A DNA stretch of 37,796 bases from a virus (lineage: Duplodnaviria > Heunggongvirae > Uroviricota > Caudoviricetes). How positions within the stretch are numbered: position 1 is the first letter of the stretch; each line of letters begins with the position of its first letter. Under the pieces are notes generated by a model. It saw only the letters and a list, made by a program, of their open reading frames with translations. It had not been told where the DNA came from and searched no databases. Of this stretch, positions 1-35,774 are shown piece by piece. The stretch spans positions 1 to 37,796 of IMG/VR virus record IMGVR_UViG_2897375277_000008. One strand, given 5' to 3'. The translations under genes and the position numbers were made by a program.

Positions 1-1445
1 CTTTCTGGATCCACGTCATTCAGTTTGCACGTCCCGATCAGGCTGTACAGTAGCGCTCCCCGCTCACCACCATGGTCAGAGCCGAAGAACAGGAAGTTTT
101 TACGACCCAGACTGACCGCCCGCAGGGCATTTTCAGCGATGTTGTTGTCGATTTCCACCCAGCCATCGTTCGCATAGTACGTCAGTGCCGGCCACTGGTT
201 AAGTGCGTACGCGAACGCCTTCGCCAACTCTGAGTGTCGCGACAGGGTCTTCATCTTTTCACGCAACCAGCTTTCCAGGGATTTCAACAGCGGTTTCGTT
301 TTTCGCTGACGTTCAGCAAGCCGCTGCTCTGCCGGCATTCCCCTTATATCCGCCTCTATGGCGTACAACTGACCGATCTGCTCCAGGGCTTCTTCCGTCA
401 GTGCTGACGGGATGCGGACGTGCACATCGTGGATCTTTCGGCGGGCATGAGCCCAGCAGGCAGCTTCCGTTATCCCACCATTGCGATACAGCTCGTTGAA
501 CCCGGCGTACGCATCCGCTTGCAGCACACCGCTGAAGCAAGCAAGATGAGTCTGCGGATGGATGCCTTTCCTGTCCGGGCTGTAAGCGAACCACACTGCA
601 GGTGCCAACGCTGACCCGGCATTGCGGTCATCACGAACATACGCCCACAACCGCCCGGTCTTCGTCTTCTTATTACCCGGCAGCAGTACCTGGACCGGGG
701 TATCATCGGCATGGAGTTTGCCGTCAGTCATGACATAGCCATGAAGCGCCTCTTCCAGCGGAGACAGCAGCCGGCAGCATGCATCCACCCAGCCCGACAG
801 CAGTGAACGGCTCAGCTCCACACCTTGCCGGCCGTATATTTCTGACTGGCGATACAGCGGGGTGTGCTCTGCATACTTCGAGGTCAGCACGCGGGCCAGC
901 AGCCCCGGTCCGGCGATACCCCGCTCGATGGGCCGCGAAGGTGCAGGTGCCTGCACGATGGCATCGCACTGAGTACAGGCATGTTTTTCCCGTACCGTCC
1001 GGATAACCCGGAAGGCGCTACGCATCAACTCCAGCTGTTCGGCGGTATCCTCGCCCAGATAGCTCAGTGAACCGCCGCAGTTCGGGCAGCACGGCGCCGC
1101 AGGCAACAGTCGCTTTTCGTCACGGGGTAGTGATTCAGGGAACGGCTTACGGGTGCGGGTCTGACGCAACGGACGCTGTACTGCCGGGTCATACACCCTA
1201 CCAGTCAGCGTATCGCTCTCTTTCTGAAGCCGGTTCAGATCGGCTTCCATTTGTGCGATACGGCGGGAGACTTTTTCGGAACGACTGCCGAAGTTCATCC
1301 GGCGGAGTTTATCCAGCTGCGCCTGCAGATGGTCTATTTCGCGCTCCCGGTTGCTCAGCTTTTCCTGCAGGGCGTGGATCAGCGCTTCCTGTTCGGCCAG
1401 GCGCTGTTTCAGCAGGAAGATGTCGTCAGAAGAGATGTCGTTCAT
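1..1445 (-). CDS. tnpC: IS66-family transposase TnpC, 5' part (481 codons open to window edge)
   Basis: Minus-strand ATG at 1445; my hand translation starts [30 protein letters not shown] and contains CCPNCGG and a DDE-type core. Frame stays open to position 1, which is why it is absent from the ORF track. Confidence 0.8.
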
Positions 1446-1494: not shown

Positions 1495-1842
1495 TTACAG
1501 CATGGTCAGGGAGGTCAGCAGCCGCTTAGGCTGTCGCCAGTCGATACCTTCCAGCAGCATCGCCAGCTGCGCCTGCGTAAGGAACACTTTGCCATCACGG
1601 GCTGACGGCCAGGCGAAGCGCCCACGCTCCAGCCGTTTGGTCAGGAGGCACAGCCCGTCACCGGTGGACCACAGCAGTTTAACCTGACTGCCGCTGCGGC
1701 CCCGGAAAATGAAAACATGGCCGGACATGGGATCGTCTTTCAGCGCCGTCTGTACTTTCGCAGCCAGGCCGTTGAAGCCATTTCTCATATCGGTGATACC
1801 GGCAACCAGCCAAATTTTGGTCCCGGAAGGTAACGGGATCAT
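1495..1842 (-). CDS. tnpB: IS66 Orf2 (TnpB)
   Basis: 115-aa [33 protein letters not shown]..., recognised as IS66 TnpB; overlaps tnpA by 4 nt. Confidence 0.85.
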
Positions 1843-31184: not shown

Positions 31185-31523
31185 CTATTTCCCTGAATTT
31201 ACGACGAAACTGTTCGAGCGGACTGAAGCATTCATGCTCATAACCTTCGCGGAGGTAGATAACCCGTTGTGTTTCCGGCTCCCAACGAATGACTCTGACG
31301 GGCACTCCGTAGTGATCTTTGAACCAGCGGTTAACTTGTCGCAAAGGACTGTCTCCTTCTGCCGGTTGAAATCCCCCACAGCCCACTCTGCAAAGCTGTG
31401 GGTTACAATTTCCCTGTCACCTGGTACATTCACTGCATAGCAATACTCCACCTTCGCTTTTCCACCCGGAACCGGAAGCGCAATCAGTTGCGAGCGACGG
31501 TAGTGTGTTGTTAAACTGTTCAT
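31185..31523 (-). CDS. Hypothetical protein (e14 YmfM-like by size and position)
   Basis: 112-aa ORF between the CII-like gene and the replication gene; overlaps an alternative-frame 73-aa ORF. Confidence 0.4.
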
Positions 31524-32083
31524 GCGTTAGTTTCTCCACAGTCACGACACGCCACGGCGCCCGGAGCTGCACACTCGCGGGCGTCACTACTTTCTGAAAC
31601 GCAAAAGATTTTGTAGACCAGTGCTGCATGCTCCTGCAGCTTCGAAATTGAGAGGTACAGCTCATCGTTAATTGCTGTCTTCTCATGCGGTTCCACTACA
31701 CCGTCTTCAATTGCTGAACGAATCTGTTTTGAATAACTGCCGATCTGTTCAATGACCTCCAGCAGGCGTTGGTTGATATCGGCGTTGTCCACATCCTCGA
31801 CGTCAGGAAGAGACACAAAGACGCCATTTGCAGACTGCGCCACAGCATCAGCAATGAAGTGAGTGCCACCAGCACGCTGTAAAACCATTGCCCATCCCAG
31901 CGGGAAAATCTGATCGCCATCTGCACGAAGGCGGTTGAATAAAGCGTTTTCTGTTACATCGAGCCAGTCAGCCGCTTCAGCGTAACCACCCGGCAACGCC
32001 GCGATAGTTTTTCTGACAGCTTTCACGTACCACTCAGGCTGTTTTTCTATTTTCCAGTGATGCTTACCCACGATTAGCCTCAT
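31520..32083 (-). CDS. CII-like early regulatory protein (CP76 type)
   Basis: 187-aa ORF directly downstream of cro; family assignment from memory. Confidence 0.5.
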
Positions 32084-32114: not shown

Positions 32115-32315
32115 CTAATCTTTCGGATAGATATCCGGTCTTAAGTCAGATTTCGTAATTGCACCTGATGTGTATTGCTCAAGTTTTTTAGCCAGCACAA
32201 AACTGGCTTTTTTATAGCCATTGAAAACCAGCCGTAAGTAGCCAGGTGTTGAGCCAACTTTTCCGGCCAACTCGCCCTGCTGTTCTTTGGTTAAAGAGTC
32301 CCAATACGCTTTCAT
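32115..32315 (-). CDS. cro: Cro-like repressor
   Basis: Start set at the Met of MKAYWDSLTKEQQGELAGKVGSTPGYLRLVFNG... (66 aa) with GGAGG Shine-Dalgarno; track ORF 32115..32618 is over-extended through the operator region. Confidence 0.7.
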   Translation of the reverse strand: MKAYWDSLTKEQQGELAGKVGSTPGYLRLVFNGYKKASFVLAKKLEQYTSGAITKSDLRPDIYPKD

Positions 32316-32405
32316 ACAATATGTACCTCCGGTATACATATTACATGATTGAAATGAACCTTCAAGATACTTGTACCTTAACGGTACAAGGGTTTTAATT
32401 TCGTT
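32316..32405. promoter_or_regulatory. Right operator/promoter region (divergent P_R and P_RM)
   Basis: 19-bp motif ATGTACCTCCGGTATACAT (32321..32339) and perfect 8-5-8 palindrome cttgtacc-ttaac-ggtacaag (32370..32390). P_R on minus: -35 at 32360..32365, -10 at 32338..32343. P_RM on plus: TTGTAC 32371..32376, N17, TTTAAT 32394..32399, about 7 nt from the cI ATG. Confidence 0.55.
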
Positions 32406-33080
32406 ATGAAAACAATCCATGACATCCGGCGGTCTAACGCCAGAAAACTGAGAGATGGTGTTGGCGGGAATTCTTCCTTTGCCACTATGATTGATCGCGA
32501 GCCAACCCAGACCAGCAGGTTTATGGGAGATGGTGCTACTAAAAATATCGGTGACAGCATGGCACGACACATCGAAAAATGTTTCGACCTGCCTGTCGGA
32601 TGGCTCGATCAAGAACACCAGACAACGAACATCACAAAAAAACCTGATGTTTCAATCACTAATAAACAAATCACATTAGTCCCTGTCATATCATGGGTAC
32701 AGGCCGGAGCATGGAAAGAAGTTGGATATTCTGAGGTTGATTTGAGCACAGCAGAAACGTATCCCTGCCCTGTACCCTGTGGGGAAATGACTTATATCTT
32801 GCGGGTGATAGGTGATTCAATGATTGATGAGTACCGCCCGGGAGACATGATTTTTGTCGATCCTGAAGTACCTGCCTGCCACGGTGACGACGTTATTGCA
32901 TTGATGCACGATACAGGTGAAACCACCTTCAAAAGGTTGATAGAAGATGGGACACAGCATTATCTCAAAGCGTTAAACCCAAACTGGCCTGAGCCTTACA
33001 TTAAGATCAACGGTAATTGCTCTATAATTGGAACTGTGATTTTCTCAGGAAAACCAAGAAGATACAAAATCAAAGCCTAA
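32406..33080 (+). CDS. cI: CI-type repressor (HTH plus S24 LexA-like peptidase domain)
   Basis: 224-aa ORF divergent from cro; C-terminal half ...LRVIGDSMIDEYRPGDMIFVDPE...GDDVIALMHDTGETTFKRL... is S24 autopeptidase-like. Confidence 0.85.
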   Translation: MKTIHDIRRSNARKLRDGVGGNSSFATMIDREPTQTSRFMGDGATKNIGDSMARHIEKCFDLPVGWLDQEHQTTNITKKPDVSITNKQITLVPVISWVQAGAWKEVGYSEVDLSTAETYPCPVPCGEMTYILRVIGDSMIDEYRPGDMIFVDPEVPACHGDDVIALMHDTGETTFKRLIEDGTQHYLKALNPNWPEPYIKINGNCSIIGTVIFSGKPRRYKIKA

Positions 33081-33092
33081 TCAATGTTTATG

Positions 33093-33115
33093 AACCTGCT
33101 TCGGCAGGTTTTTTT
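33093..33115 (+). terminator. Intrinsic terminator after cI
   Basis: Stem aacctgc/gcaggtt, loop ttcg, then TTTTT. Confidence 0.7.
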
Positions 33116-33119
33116 ATAC

Positions 33120-33153
33120 TTGACAATGTACCCTTAAGATACATAATGTACCC
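33120..33153 (+). promoter_or_regulatory. Candidate P_L-equivalent promoter with operator motif
   Basis: TTGACA (33120..33125), N17, ATAATG; overlapped by ATGTACCCTTAAGATACAT (33126..33144), same 19-bp pattern as in O_R, plus a second ATGTACCC at 33146..33153. Confidence 0.5.
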
Positions 33154-33314
33154 AAGAGAAACAACAAACAGGCAGGACGCCCACGAAGTAGCCGCCTGGG
33201 GCATATGAAGTCCAGGATGATTCGTTAGCAACAAAAAAGCGCCCTACAGGACGCTTAGCTCTTTAACAATCTGGTCCCCATCAACAAGTAACTGATAACT
33301 TGAGGAGGTGTGAA

Positions 33315-33521
33315 ATGCACAAAACAGAACCAAAAATCGTCGCGCCCGGATACACAAATGAGGAAATTTACGAGTGGATGGCAAAGAAGCTGGCAGCTAT
33401 AAACCAGCTTCGTGAAGTGCTGTCTTATCGACAGGAAACAATAGACTCCTTAAAAAAACTGGATCAGGAAATCACGGTTTTATCACAGGATGTTACTTTA
33501 GATATTGTGCAGACAAATTAG
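33315..33521 (+). CDS. Hypothetical 68-aa protein (first gene after P_L-like promoter)
   Basis: Start at ATG 33315 with strong GAGGAGG Shine-Dalgarno (track ORF starts 33300); predicted helical, not Arg-rich. Confidence 0.5.
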   Translation: MHKTEPKIVAPGYTNEEIYEWMAKKLAAINQLREVLSYRQETIDSLKKLDQEITVLSQDVTLDIVQTN

Positions 33522-33927
33522 GATCCCATTCATTTTCGTCAAAATCATCAAAGTGATGAATTTGTGATCTCCAGTCTCGATAATCTAAAAATTTCTGGGC
33601 GGTTACGCTTATTTTATCAAGCGTGAGTTCATCCTGAATTGAAAGAAGAAGTTCATCAAATTTCATCTCATTAATCTGTTTTGGCATCCAGTGATGCTTC
33701 ATCAGAATAAGGTGAACCAGAGCTTTTTTCCCATTCAACTGATTATAGGGAGTGCCGAATTTCTTCCGGTGCTCATGTAAGACAAGGTCCAGAAGAGTAA
33801 GTAATGTTGCCCTTGATTCAACTTTGCTTATTTCGACTGATGACACTACCCCACTGATTTCAATGCCCCGATACTTTCCAACATTTTCACAGTGGGATTT
33901 GTACAGCGTATAGATATTACCGGACAT
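33493..33927 (-). CDS. Hypothetical 144-aa protein in the immunity region
   Basis: ORF convergent with and overlapping the 68-aa gene by 29 bp; AT-rich; direct repeats in its upstream region. Confidence 0.5.
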   Translation of the reverse strand: MSGNIYTLYKSHCENVGKYRGIEISGVVSSVEISKVESRATLLTLLDLVLHEHRKKFGTPYNQLNGKKALVHLILMKHHWMPKQINEMKFDELLLSIQDELTLDKISVTAQKFLDYRDWRSQIHHFDDFDENEWDPNLSAQYLK

Positions 33928-33993: not shown

Positions 33994-34210
33994 GGTCCAC
34001 CTCGCCTGATGTGGCTAAAAGCAGGCACATAACAGCTAAGTATTTTCAACCAGAGAGAATCCTTAGCGTTGTGGTGAATGCGGCTCAGCGCACGCGGGTT
34101 AAGGTTGAGGCTGACAGTCGACCTTCTGTGGATACCCACCCGTCTGGTGTGCAACCTTCGCTAGGCACCGGGAAGCACCCGGCACCACAACTTTATGCTG
34201 TGTGTAGTCT

Positions 34211-34259
34211 TGACGGTACCAGTTTGTACCCTTGCTTCCGGCTGGTACCGTCCTTTTTA
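34211..34259 (+). terminator. Intrinsic terminator-like hairpin
   Basis: 11-bp perfect stem gacggtaccag/ctggtaccgtc with 19-nt loop, then cttttt. Confidence 0.5.
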
Positions 34260-34347
34260 CAAAACAGAGAAGAGCATCACCGGACGACGGGCTCATAACC
34301 CAATCCATCCGGGCGGCAGTCATCGCAGGTGTTCTTCTCTGTTTTGT
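34259..34347 (+). repeat. Long inverted repeat (17 of 18 bp arms, 53-bp spacer) upstream of xis
   Basis: acaaaacagagaagagca (34259..34276) pairs with tgttcttctctgttttgt (34330..34347). Confidence 0.6.
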
Positions 34348-34420: not shown

Positions 34421-34666
34421 ATGCTTCAAATGTTAACTCTTGAAGAATGGGCTTCTGAAAAATACAGAAGTAATCCTCCAAGCGTTTCCACGTTGCGTCG
34501 TTATGCTAAGCAGAATTTGTTTTGTCCACCGGCAATGAAACAAGGTCGGTTATGGCGAGTGCGTGAGGACGCCGAGTTAGTTGGAGAGCTGGTAACACCA
34601 GTAATTAAGAAAAATGACTCATTACTTTTGCAACGGATTTTGAGTGATGGCAGCCAGACCGCGTAA
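34421..34666 (+). CDS. xis: Excisionase-like protein
   Basis: 81-aa ORF immediately upstream of and overlapping the integrase gene. Confidence 0.6.
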   Translation: MLQMLTLEEWASEKYRSNPPSVSTLRRYAKQNLFCPPAMKQGRLWRVREDAELVGELVTPVIKKNDSLLLQRILSDGSQTA

Positions 34667-35774
34667 GAATAATGTTTCAGTCCCTAACTTATATCCGCTT
34701 TATAGCCGAAAGGTAAATAAAGTCTATTGGCGGTATAAGCATCCAATAACAGGGAAATTCCATGCTTTGGGAACAAACGAAGCTGAAGCTATCGCTATTG
34801 CCACTGAAGCCAATACGCGCCTGGCTGAACAAAGAACCCGGCAGATTCTGGCCATCAGTGACAGGATCGCAACCAGCAAAGGGAAAGCAATCACAACGTC
34901 AACTTGGTTAGATCGCTATCAAGCGATCCAGAATGACAGGCTGCAAAGTGGTGATATAAAGCTCAACACCTACAAGCAGAAAGCCAAACCTGTCTCCTTA
35001 CTTAGAGAACGGGCAGGATTGAAGCTAATTTCAGCTGTTGATGTCCGGGATATTGCACAATTACTTGATGAGTATATTGCCGCTGGGCAACCGAGAATGG
35101 CACAAGTAGTTCGCTCCGTCCTGATTGATGTTTTCAAAGAGGCGCAGCACTACGGAGAAGTACCTCCTGGCTATAACCCTGCATTAGCTACTAAACAGCC
35201 AAGAAGAAAAATTACCCGACAACGGCTGAGCCTCGAAGAATGGAAAAAAATATTCGATATCGCAGATGCCAGCCATCGTTACATGGGAAATGCCATGCTG
35301 CTAGCCTTGGTTACTGGTCAGCGGTTAGGTGATATTTCACGTATGAAATTTAGCGATATTTGGGATGATCATCTGCATGTCATTCAGGAAAAAACCGGGA
35401 GCAAAATCGCCATCCCGCTTTCCCTGCGCCTCAATGCGATTAACTGGAGTTTGCGCGATGTAGTAGCCCGTTGCCGTGACTATGCTGTCAGCCCATACCT
35501 TGTACATTTTTTTCGTACTACTTCACAGGCTGAACGCGGCGCACAGGTTAAAGCCAATACCTTGACTATGAATTTCAGTAAAGCAAGAGATTTAGCAGGA
35601 ATTGACTGGGGTGAAGGTTCTCCCGCAACATTTCATGAACAAAGGTCTTTATCAGAACGTTTGTATAAAGAACAGGGTTTAAATACACAAAAATTACTTG
35701 GTCATAAAACACAACAACAAACCGATCGTTATCATGACGATCGAGGCAAGGGATGGAGCAAAGTAGCGTTGTGA
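34644..35774 (+). CDS. int: Tyrosine integrase, lambda Int family
   Basis: 376-aa ORF; parallels lambda Int as I recall it (…VTGQRLGDISRMKFSDI…, …TFHEQRSLSERLYKEQ…, …LLGHKTQQQTDRYHDDRG…, with the C-terminal catalytic Tyr). Confidence 0.9.
   Translation: MMAARPRKNNVSVPNLYPLYSRKVNKVYWRYKHPITGKFHALGTNEAEAIAIATEANTRLAEQRTRQILAISDRIATSKGKAITTSTWLDRYQAIQNDRLQSGDIKLNTYKQKAKPVSLLRERAGLKLISAVDVRDIAQLLDEYIAAGQPRMAQVVRSVLIDVFKEAQHYGEVPPGYNPALATKQPRRKITRQRLSLEEWKKIFDIADASHRYMGNAMLLALVTGQRLGDISRMKFSDIWDDHLHVIQEKTGSKIAIPLSLRLNAINWSLRDVVARCRDYAVSPYLVHFFRTTSQAERGAQVKANTLTMNFSKARDLAGIDWGEGSPATFHEQRSLSERLYKEQGLNTQKLLGHKTQQQTDRYHDDRGKGWSKVAL

Follow-up and report, generated by a model that had tools for sequence, protein, structure and literature searches.

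How does a lambdoid prophage of the e14/SfV type arrange the operators through which its repressor would keep the lytic genes silent, and which of the repeats that surround its repressor gene belong to that arrangement? We examined this question for a stretch of 37,796 nucleotides (nt) of a caudoviral genome (IMG/VR record IMGVR_UViG_2897375277_000008, positions 1 to 37,796), referred to here in its entirety as the window. Judged by its sequence, the window is a lambdoid prophage of the e14/SfV/SfIV type, with a repressor gene cI that is the ymfK/cohE of Escherichia coli and a divergent cro that is ymfT/croE. An earlier reading of the letters alone, the original prediction, had noticed an ATGTACC-N6-ATACAT repeat at both ends of cI and a perfect palindrome in front of the gene, and had proposed that these sites define O_R and O_L for this immunity type and that the cI mRNA is leaderless. 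Our results indicate that there is one 19-bp motif, WTGTACC-N5-GGTACAW (7-5-7), which is present in five copies, three in O_R and two in O_L, and that these very probably form a lambda-like immunity switch in which CI and Cro would both read a single operator type.

The two exact 19-mers lie precisely where they had been reported (ATGTACCTCCGGTATACAT at 32321..32339 and ATGTACCCTTAAGATACAT at 33126..33144). The 8-5-8 palindrome CTTGTACC-TTAAC-GGTACAAG at 32370..32390 is indeed perfect and overlaps the cI promoter P_RM, but it does not stand apart as an element of its own: among the copies of the 7-5-7 motif it is the best one, in register at 32371..32389, and its eighth base pair is not conserved in relatives. 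The three sites of the original prediction are therefore real, although two further copies, at 32354..32372 and 33146..33164, had escaped it. In O_R we distinguish site A (O_R1-like; ATGTACC-TCCGG-TATACAT, 32321..32339), with a position weight matrix (PWM) score of 19.7, site M (O_R2-like and weak; ATGAACC-TTCAA-GATACTT, 32354..32372), with a score of 9.5 that is not significant by itself, and site B (O_R3-like; TTGTACC-TTAAC-GGTACAA, 32371..32389), scoring 22.4. O_L comprises site C (O_L1-like; ATGTACC-CTTAA-GATACAT, 33126..33144; 22.6) and the half-conserved site D (O_L2-like; ATGTACC-CAAGA-GAAACAA, 33146..33164; 13.3). The centres of A and M are 33 bp apart, those of M and B 17 bp, with an overlap of 2 bp, and those of C and D 20 bp, so that the A-M and C-D spacings are close to whole helical turns. 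The first three sites occupy the 90-bp intergenic region between cro and cI and overlap both P_RM and the candidate P_R, i.e., a divergent repressor/cro pair separated by a short multi-operator region, and a second operator cluster is found at the promoter pL beyond cI.

The right half of site A reads TATACAT in the window, TGTACAT in K-12 and GATATACAT in SfV. Site A also lies inside a longer imperfect inverted repeat (32312..32348, TCATACAATATGTA / TACATATTACATGA, 12 of 14 positions complementary) that reaches the cro start codon and the P_R -10 element and is only partly kept in relatives. Site B departs from A and C at its outer positions: position 1 is T instead of A, because the TTG of the P_RM -35 element needs a T there, and position 19 is variable instead of T. 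On sequence grounds, these outer differences could be a basis on which CI and Cro discriminate between sites.

A search of the whole window with the pattern of the original prediction, allowing at most two mismatches, returned five matches (four distinct sites, one of them found on both strands), where 0.60 were expected. None of 100 shuffles gave five, and every match falls within the two clusters that flank cI. It should be noted that only such low-mismatch matches are informative, since TGTACC-N5-GGTACA, once three mismatches are permitted, shows no enrichment in the window as a whole (18 matches versus 10.4 expected). A palindromic 7-5-7 weight matrix was also built from distant relatives alone, with the window and its close kin left out. 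It ranks the five sites above everything else in the 37.8 kb (22.6, 22.4, 19.7, 13.3 and 9.5), and scores of at least 19.7 occur three times in the window versus 0.005 times expected per shuffled window.

The conservation of these sites was assessed by phylogenetic footprinting of 22 non-redundant loci from approximately 15 genera, with CI proteins that are 73-100% identical. DNA searches led to Hafnia phage yong2 and Edwardsiella phage EPP-1 (ca. 70% identity), and a protein-guided scan with one genome per species yielded 19 further loci (CI 73-100% identical). In all 22 loci A and B are exactly 50 bp apart, without a single insertion or deletion between them, the end of B lies 16 bp (19 loci) or 17 bp (three loci) from the cI ATG, and TTGACA is followed by site C, a gap of 1 bp and site D in the same arrangement throughout. 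The half-site positions carry 1.8-1.9 bits each; for site B the half-sites reach 1.84 bits versus 0.45 bits in the central 5 bp, and for site C 1.91 versus 0.56 bits. No other signal overlaps the central 5 bp of B and C, and it is in these N5 segments that the few substitutions among the closest relatives sit. The left half of site M, ATGAACC, is invariant in 21 of the 22 loci and its right half reads GGTAC in most genera, while site D has a near-invariant left half and a weak right half (G-AAC-). The TCC in the spacer of site A is invariant because, on the complementary strand, it encodes the Shine-Dalgarno (SD) sequence of cro. The predicted recognition helix of CI (REPTQxSR) is near-invariant across the loci of the 22 relatives, and the Cro segment GYLRLVF-G-KKAG is so across the same loci as the conserved operators.

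The five sites are closely interlocked with three promoters. P_RM (+ strand) consists of a -35 element TTGTAC (32371..32376), a 17-nt spacer, a -10 element TTTAAT (32394..32399) and a further 6 nt up to its start on the A of the cI ATG (32406); this geometry is kept in all 22 loci and the -10 is T-TAAT-like in 19 of them. The candidate P_R (- strand), with -35 TTGAAG (32365..32360), a 16-nt spacer and -10 TAATAT (32343..32338), has a conserved position in the 22 loci, where the -35 reads TTGnnG in 21 and the -10 TAATAT in 16 and CATAAT in four. Its start would fall at about 32331-32333 and give cro a leader of approximately 18 nt with a GGAGG SD sequence (32330..32326). The strong TTGACA promoter that had been noticed after the cI terminator, pL (+ strand), is TTGACA (33120..33125), 16 nt and CATAAT (33142..33147), a match of 11/12 that is invariant across genera, with a predicted start near 33154; the promoter annotated in the GenBank record of phage Ayreon maps onto window 33120..33147. 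Site A, centred at -76 from the P_RM start, takes in the cro SD sequence, the P_R start point and the final 2 bp of the likely -10, so that its reported position over the cro promoter holds for the edge of the -10 and the start point and not for the promoter as a whole, and the SD sequence has to be added. Site M is centred on the P_R -35 and at -43 from the P_RM start, and has its last 2 bp in common with B. Site B spans -35 to -17 of P_RM (centre -26) and lies upstream of the P_R -35, while its left half doubles as the P_RM -35. Site C takes up the spacer of pL: it adjoins the -35 directly and runs 3 bp into the -10. Site D lies over the pL start point, its centre some 2 bp past the predicted start.

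This interlocking raises the question of whether the conserved blocks are anything more than the elements of P_R, P_RM and pL, with an incidental palindromic appearance. The P_RM -35 is indeed the left half of B, the pL -10 is formed by the junction of the right half of C and the left half of D, and the P_R -35 sits in the spacer of M. However, half-sites are equally invariant within the promoter spacers, namely the left half of C and the right half of B inside the 16-17-bp spacers of pL and P_RM and the left half of M inside that of P_R, positions where a promoter imposes no sequence, and promoters alone therefore cannot explain the conservation. The same 7-mer moreover recurs at five places as an inverted repeat with a fixed 5-bp gap, and conserved arms around a free centre are the pattern of a dimeric helix-turn-helix (HTH) site. 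An explanation by promoter elements only thus seems most improbable, and the reading of the 19-mers as putative operators is supported by the phylogenetic footprint.

The same alignment bears on a second alternative, i.e., that the palindrome at 32370..32390 acts as an RNA hairpin or intrinsic terminator instead of an operator. A terminator scan does flag it, as an 8-bp stem followed by GGTTTTAATT. However, across the 22 loci the arms are invariant and never covary while the loop changes freely, and this absence of covariation favours a DNA-binding site over a hairpin or terminator. The downstream T-run is not conserved either (it is replaced by AATGTTTAAT, GATGTCTAAT and others), and the palindrome lies upstream of the mapped cI start and hence outside the P_RM transcript. 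We consider the chance that it functions as an RNA element to be negligible and continue to treat it as operator site B.

The position of that start was the second claim of the original prediction. The -10 element, which had been placed about 7 nt before the cI ATG, is TTTAAT at 32394..32399 and ends 6 nt before it; among the 22 loci this distance is 6 nt in 19 and 7 nt in three, and its sequence varies freely. No conserved SD sequence precedes cI in these loci, and a gap of 6-7 nt has no room for one. In K-12, differential RNA sequencing identified only five mRNAs whose leaders are below 10 nt in length, among them that of e14 ymfK, whose transcription start site (TSS), 1202156, is the first base of the gene and corresponds to a leader of 0 nt (PMC4681348, Table S3), i.e., a start on the ATG. 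The gene, as cohE, is also included in a list of "known leaderless genes" in a ribosome-profiling paper (PMC8794815). The window is identical to K-12 over 32336..32430, a segment that contains M, B, the -10 element and the start codon, and the K-12 result therefore transfers to the window, although the start was mapped on the identical K-12 e14 sequence and not in this strain. A point against a strictly absent leader is that the general TSS table of the same study gives 1202157, so that the ymfK leader is 0 or at most 1 nt (PMC4681348). On the whole, a leaderless cI mRNA is supported, as had been claimed. We also observed that two GenBank records place the cI start elsewhere than at the conserved leaderless ATG, that of yong2 117 nt too far downstream (L004:1484) and that of EPP-1 66 nt too far upstream (L005:1586); the gene callers apparently misplaced these starts because no SD sequence is present.

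The proteins that would read the sites fit a lambda-type switch. The open reading frame (ORF) of cI (32406..33080, + strand) encodes 224 amino acids with an N-terminal HTH domain and an S24 autocleavage domain (Pfam Peptidase_S24, E 3e-26), in which the cleavage site Ala100-Gly101 and the catalytic residues Ser138 (GDSM) and Lys176 (FKRL) are all present, i.e., the HTH plus LexA/S24 architecture of lambda-type repressors. Among solved structures, that of lambda CI comes closest to the C-terminal domain (E 2e-9); for residues 1-76 the match is the phage repressor 5d50 (E 0.0018). The ORF of cro (32115..32315, - strand; 66 amino acids) has weak matches to Pfam YdaS_toxin/HTH_3 and is annotated as cro in SfV and as ymfT in E. 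coli. The 1.28 kb spanning cI are 98.8% identical to Shigella phage SfIV, 98.3% to SfV and 98.7% to the K-12-type e14, and the mean column identity of the intergenic alignment is 98%. The e14 of K-12 and SfV/SfIV carry the same module, with 98-99% DNA identity across cro, O_R, cI, terminator, pL and O_L and only point differences from the window (in the right half of site A and in the N5 of B and C); CI, Cro and intergenic DNA are all near-identical to those of the prototypes.

From these features a switch can be proposed in which a LexA-like CI and a small Cro, transcribed divergently, both read WTGTACC-N5-GGTACAW. Occupancy of A, at the start point and -10 edge of P_R, would block cro and lytic transcription, and CI bound at A and, cooperatively, at the weakened M would shut P_R. 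From M, at -43, CI could contact sigma region 4 and activate P_RM, the same place that O_R2 has in lambda, where bound CI acts both as a repressor of P_R and as an activator of P_RM. Occupancy of B, on the P_RM -35, would turn cI off, and B may be the target of Cro, a site of negative autoregulation by CI, or both. C and D together would close the strong pL, which is expected to drive the leftward genes towards xis and int, and the cI mRNA from P_RM, which starts on the A of the ATG, would be translated without a leader. RecA-stimulated autocleavage of CI (Ala100-Gly101, Ser138, Lys176) would then release P_R and pL.

Published data on e14 are in line with this scheme. The K-12 TSS list, obtained from uninduced cells, contains neither a forward start at the predicted P_R of e14 nor a reverse start at its predicted pL (PMC4681348), which is weak but consistent evidence for P_R and pL being repressed while P_RM is active. 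The inducibility of e14 might also be explained by direct control by the host repressor LexA, the sites then being LexA boxes. The LexA box is CTGT-N8-ACAG, 16 bp, and its CTGT does resemble the half-site TGTA, but the spacing is wrong, with TGT and ACA 11 bp apart in the motif of the window. The genes intE and ymfJ have been listed as LexA-regulated (PMC11002266, discussion). However, the e14 genes on both sides of the repressor (ymfJ and intE; ymfM) are SOS-induced approximately 40 min after the LexA genes and fall off the heterology-index trend, and the authors ascribed this late induction to a CI-like repressor and not to LexA (PMC11002266). The motif furthermore travels with the CI/Cro pair across genera, while other operators occur beside other repressors (SfII, phiNP). 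There is, consequently, hardly any likelihood that LexA acts directly on these sites, and regulation by the prophage's own CI and Cro is much to be preferred.

Several observations nevertheless weigh against a lambda-like switch, at least in its details. M and D are not individually significant, since scores of 9.5 and 13.3 arise by chance 0.55 and 0.11 times per window, and the conservation of M could derive partly from the overlapping -35 and that of D from the -10 and start point. With centres 17 bp apart and 2 bp in common, M and B are doubtful candidates for simultaneous occupancy, and in its details the analogy with lambda may therefore not hold. The best of the palindromes, B, lies on the -35 of P_RM, an awkward location should CI have its highest affinity there. 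The P_R hexamers match at 8/12 positions, below the threshold of 9 of a generic promoter scan; P_R was placed by conservation instead, and its start is a predicted one. Finally, literature searches for binding data on YmfK and CroE gave gene lists only, the SfV genome paper of 2002 and the e14 analysis of 2004 lying outside their scope.

Some of these points would also suit a simpler arrangement, in which O_R is bipartite (A and B), O_L has the single site C, M and D are unbound and the logic differs from that of lambda, for example by lacking positive autoregulation. The scores of M and D within the range of shuffled sequences, the overlap of M with B and the poorly conserved right half of D all speak for it. 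Against it stand the left half of M, ATGAACC, invariant in 21 of 22 loci within a promoter spacer, together with the consensus GGTAC of its right half in most genera, and the near-invariant ATGTACC of D over the start region. The spacings of 33 bp (A-M) and 20 bp (C-D) would also place both partners on about the same helix face and suit cooperative binding. A bipartite O_R with a single-site O_L seems to us rather unlikely, though less so than the alternatives discussed above. The overlap between M and B may mean that activation and repression of P_RM are mutually exclusive binding states, a switch logic unlike that of lambda.

The comparison with lambda itself reveals a divergent cI/cro pair, a tripartite O_R, an operator on each promoter and a pL directly after the cI region in both. 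Likewise, the cI mRNA starts at its AUG, the repressor has an S24 autocleavage domain, for which lambda CI is the closest solved relative, and the middle site lies about 43 bp upstream of the cI start in the window, where lambda has O_R2 near -42. However, the operators of the window are 19 bp (7-5-7) and those of lambda 17 bp, with unrelated sequences. Neighbouring O_R centres are separated by 33 and 17 bp, M and B sharing 2 bp, where lambda has ca. 24 and 23 bp. Two sites are detectable in O_L instead of three, Cro belongs to the YdaS family, there is no rexAB between cI and pL, and this type has no N gene. According to the SfIV genome paper, N, cII and cIII are lacking in the SfII/SfV/SfIV group of phages.

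HK022, also an N-less lambdoid phage, has operators with the same half-site core, TG(T/A)AC...GT(A/T)CA. In our own reading of its sequence they are ATGTACtattgGTACTT and ATGAACtttaaGTACAT in O_L and GTGAACttatgGTTCAT and TTGAACttatgGTTCAA in O_R, located at 780..880 and 1620..1710 of the HK022 locus (L033). Nevertheless, these are 17-bp sites (6-5-6) in which the TGTAC and GTACA cores are 5 bp apart versus 7 in the window, and similarity between the repressors is confined to the S24 domain (E 1e-5), none being seen by BLASTP between the DNA-binding domains or between the Cro proteins. With a spacing that is 2 bp longer and N-terminal domains without BLASTP similarity, the window does not belong to the HK022 operator/repressor type, and the resemblance of the cores could reflect convergence or very distant ancestry. 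The Shiga toxin (Stx) phage 933W, whose operators Tyler, Mills and Friedman reportedly counted in 2004 as three in O_R and two in O_L, would have the same three-plus-two number as the window, although its repressor and operator sequence are different.

The claim that the repeats define O_R and O_L for this immunity type thus stands as far as their nature as putative operators is concerned, which the footprint supports, but not as regards novelty. The GenBank record of SfV (U82619) annotates a "putative operator region" of 69 bp that corresponds exactly to 32321..32389 of the window, beginning with the first base of A and ending with the last of B. The operator region, the promoter after cI and the leaderless start were already known, being on record for identical sequences or relatives (SfV, Ayreon and e14). 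What is added here is the unified 7-5-7 consensus, a five-site map whose geometry stays fixed across approximately 15 genera, and the observation that site A overlaps the ribosome-binding site of cro. As a discovery the finding is ordinary, though correct, and it is useful as annotation. The immunity region matches 2166 of 5426 complete E. coli genomes, besides K-12 e14 and serotype-converting phages of Shigella, which makes the e14/SfV immunity type one of the commonest in this species, and the operator map is useful for annotation, for the prediction of superinfection immunity groups and for the design of induction and reporter experiments. Twelve records of Stx2c-converting phages (LC7278xx) carry an e14-type immunity region with 95% identity, and the map should apply to the repressor that controls induction of these Stx2c prophages.

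A further conserved element is found at the start of the pL transcript. It first became apparent as a stretch of approximately 40 nt past site D that matches phages with unrelated repressors (SfII, phiNP), and comprises a conserved structured RNA of approximately 70 nt (33157..33230, + strand) with an outer helix (33163..33168 / 33221..33226) and an inner hairpin (33195..33199 / 33212..33216). In an alignment of 40 diverse copies the helices are paired in 93% of cells, compared with 19-44% after sliding of the partners. At 9 of 11 pairs the bases have changed in a compensatory manner, and the observed covariation score was not reached in any of 500 shuffles. The covariance model finds a single copy in the window (92 bits, E 3e-25). 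When the whole pL leader is folded as one RNA it is no more stable than shuffled sequences (z -0.14), so the structure is visible only by covariation, and Rfam gives no match in the O_R, O_L or pL-leader area. An unpaired core of 26 nt is almost invariant in the loci found via the repressor protein, and an exact 25-mer of the RNA occurs in at least 120 IMG/VR contigs, always 10-20 nt after the -10 of a pL-like promoter and behind at least 12 unrelated operator types; only 30 of 118 copies follow an e14-type O_L. Conversely, Ayreon, yong2 and EPP-1 have the e14-type O_L and, according to the covariance model, not the RNA, which is therefore a module separable from the operators.

A cis-acting regulator of the early operon is suggested by the position and size of the RNA, together with the reported lack of N among phages of this group. 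Like the put RNA of HK022 and HK639, the element is approximately 70 nt long and lies directly after pL, beginning within about 10 nt of the predicted pL start in the window and behind at least 12 other operator types. Tentatively, it might represent a new class of such regulators, for example a protein-independent antiterminator working like put, a possibility to which we attach limited confidence. It is not a member of the put family of antiterminator RNAs itself: the model finds no match in HK022 (putL, putR) or in HK639, including its annotated putL-like RNA, covariation supports a closing helix with one inner hairpin instead of the two side-by-side stem-loops of put, and the window has a single copy, where put has a second one after P_R. 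The anti-small RNAs AgvB and AsxR of prophages of enterohaemorrhagic E. coli (EHEC) were rejected as kin as well, since both map to the P_R' moron site.

A hairpin (33237..33256) is directly followed by an exact rrn/nut-type boxA (GCTCTTTAACAA, 33258..33269, + strand), approximately 105 nt into the pL transcript. The window contains no other exact copy; no second boxA was found downstream of cro, and no N-like ORF was seen. Taken on the minus strand, this hairpin would also serve well as an intrinsic terminator of the convergent gene at 33493..33927. In yong2, a tRNA-like sequence beginning gtggtgtagctcagttggtagagc (L004:2352..2425), approximately 150 nt downstream of the pL/O_L unit, occupies the place of the leader RNA and small ORF of the window.

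Among the neighbouring features, the intrinsic terminator of cI (33092..33118, + strand; an 8-bp stem with a T-run) is annotated as a terminator in SfV and Ayreon as well; its hairpin and T-run were placed at 33092..33111, just ahead of the TTGACA of pL. Downstream of cro lies ymfL (31520..32083, - strand), also present in e14, which matches Pfam Phage_CP76 (phage regulatory protein CII; E 1.4e-13), despite the statement in the SfIV genome paper that the cII function is absent from SfII, SfV and SfIV. The K-12 TSS list contains two reverse-strand starts, 1203046 and 1203132, past ymfL in the rightward (P_R) operon, which possibly mark promoters of the establishment type for cI. Beyond cI on the other side, homology to K-12 stops at 33229 and the cargo of the pL operon differs beyond that point; ORFs and domain searches place xis and the integrase gene at 34421..35774. 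Between a minus-strand ORF and xis, Rfam gives a near-match to the prophage small RNA STnc100 (34038..34261, + strand; 44.3 bits versus a gathering score of 47, E 1e-7), with a weak DicF-like match inside it at 34199..34253.

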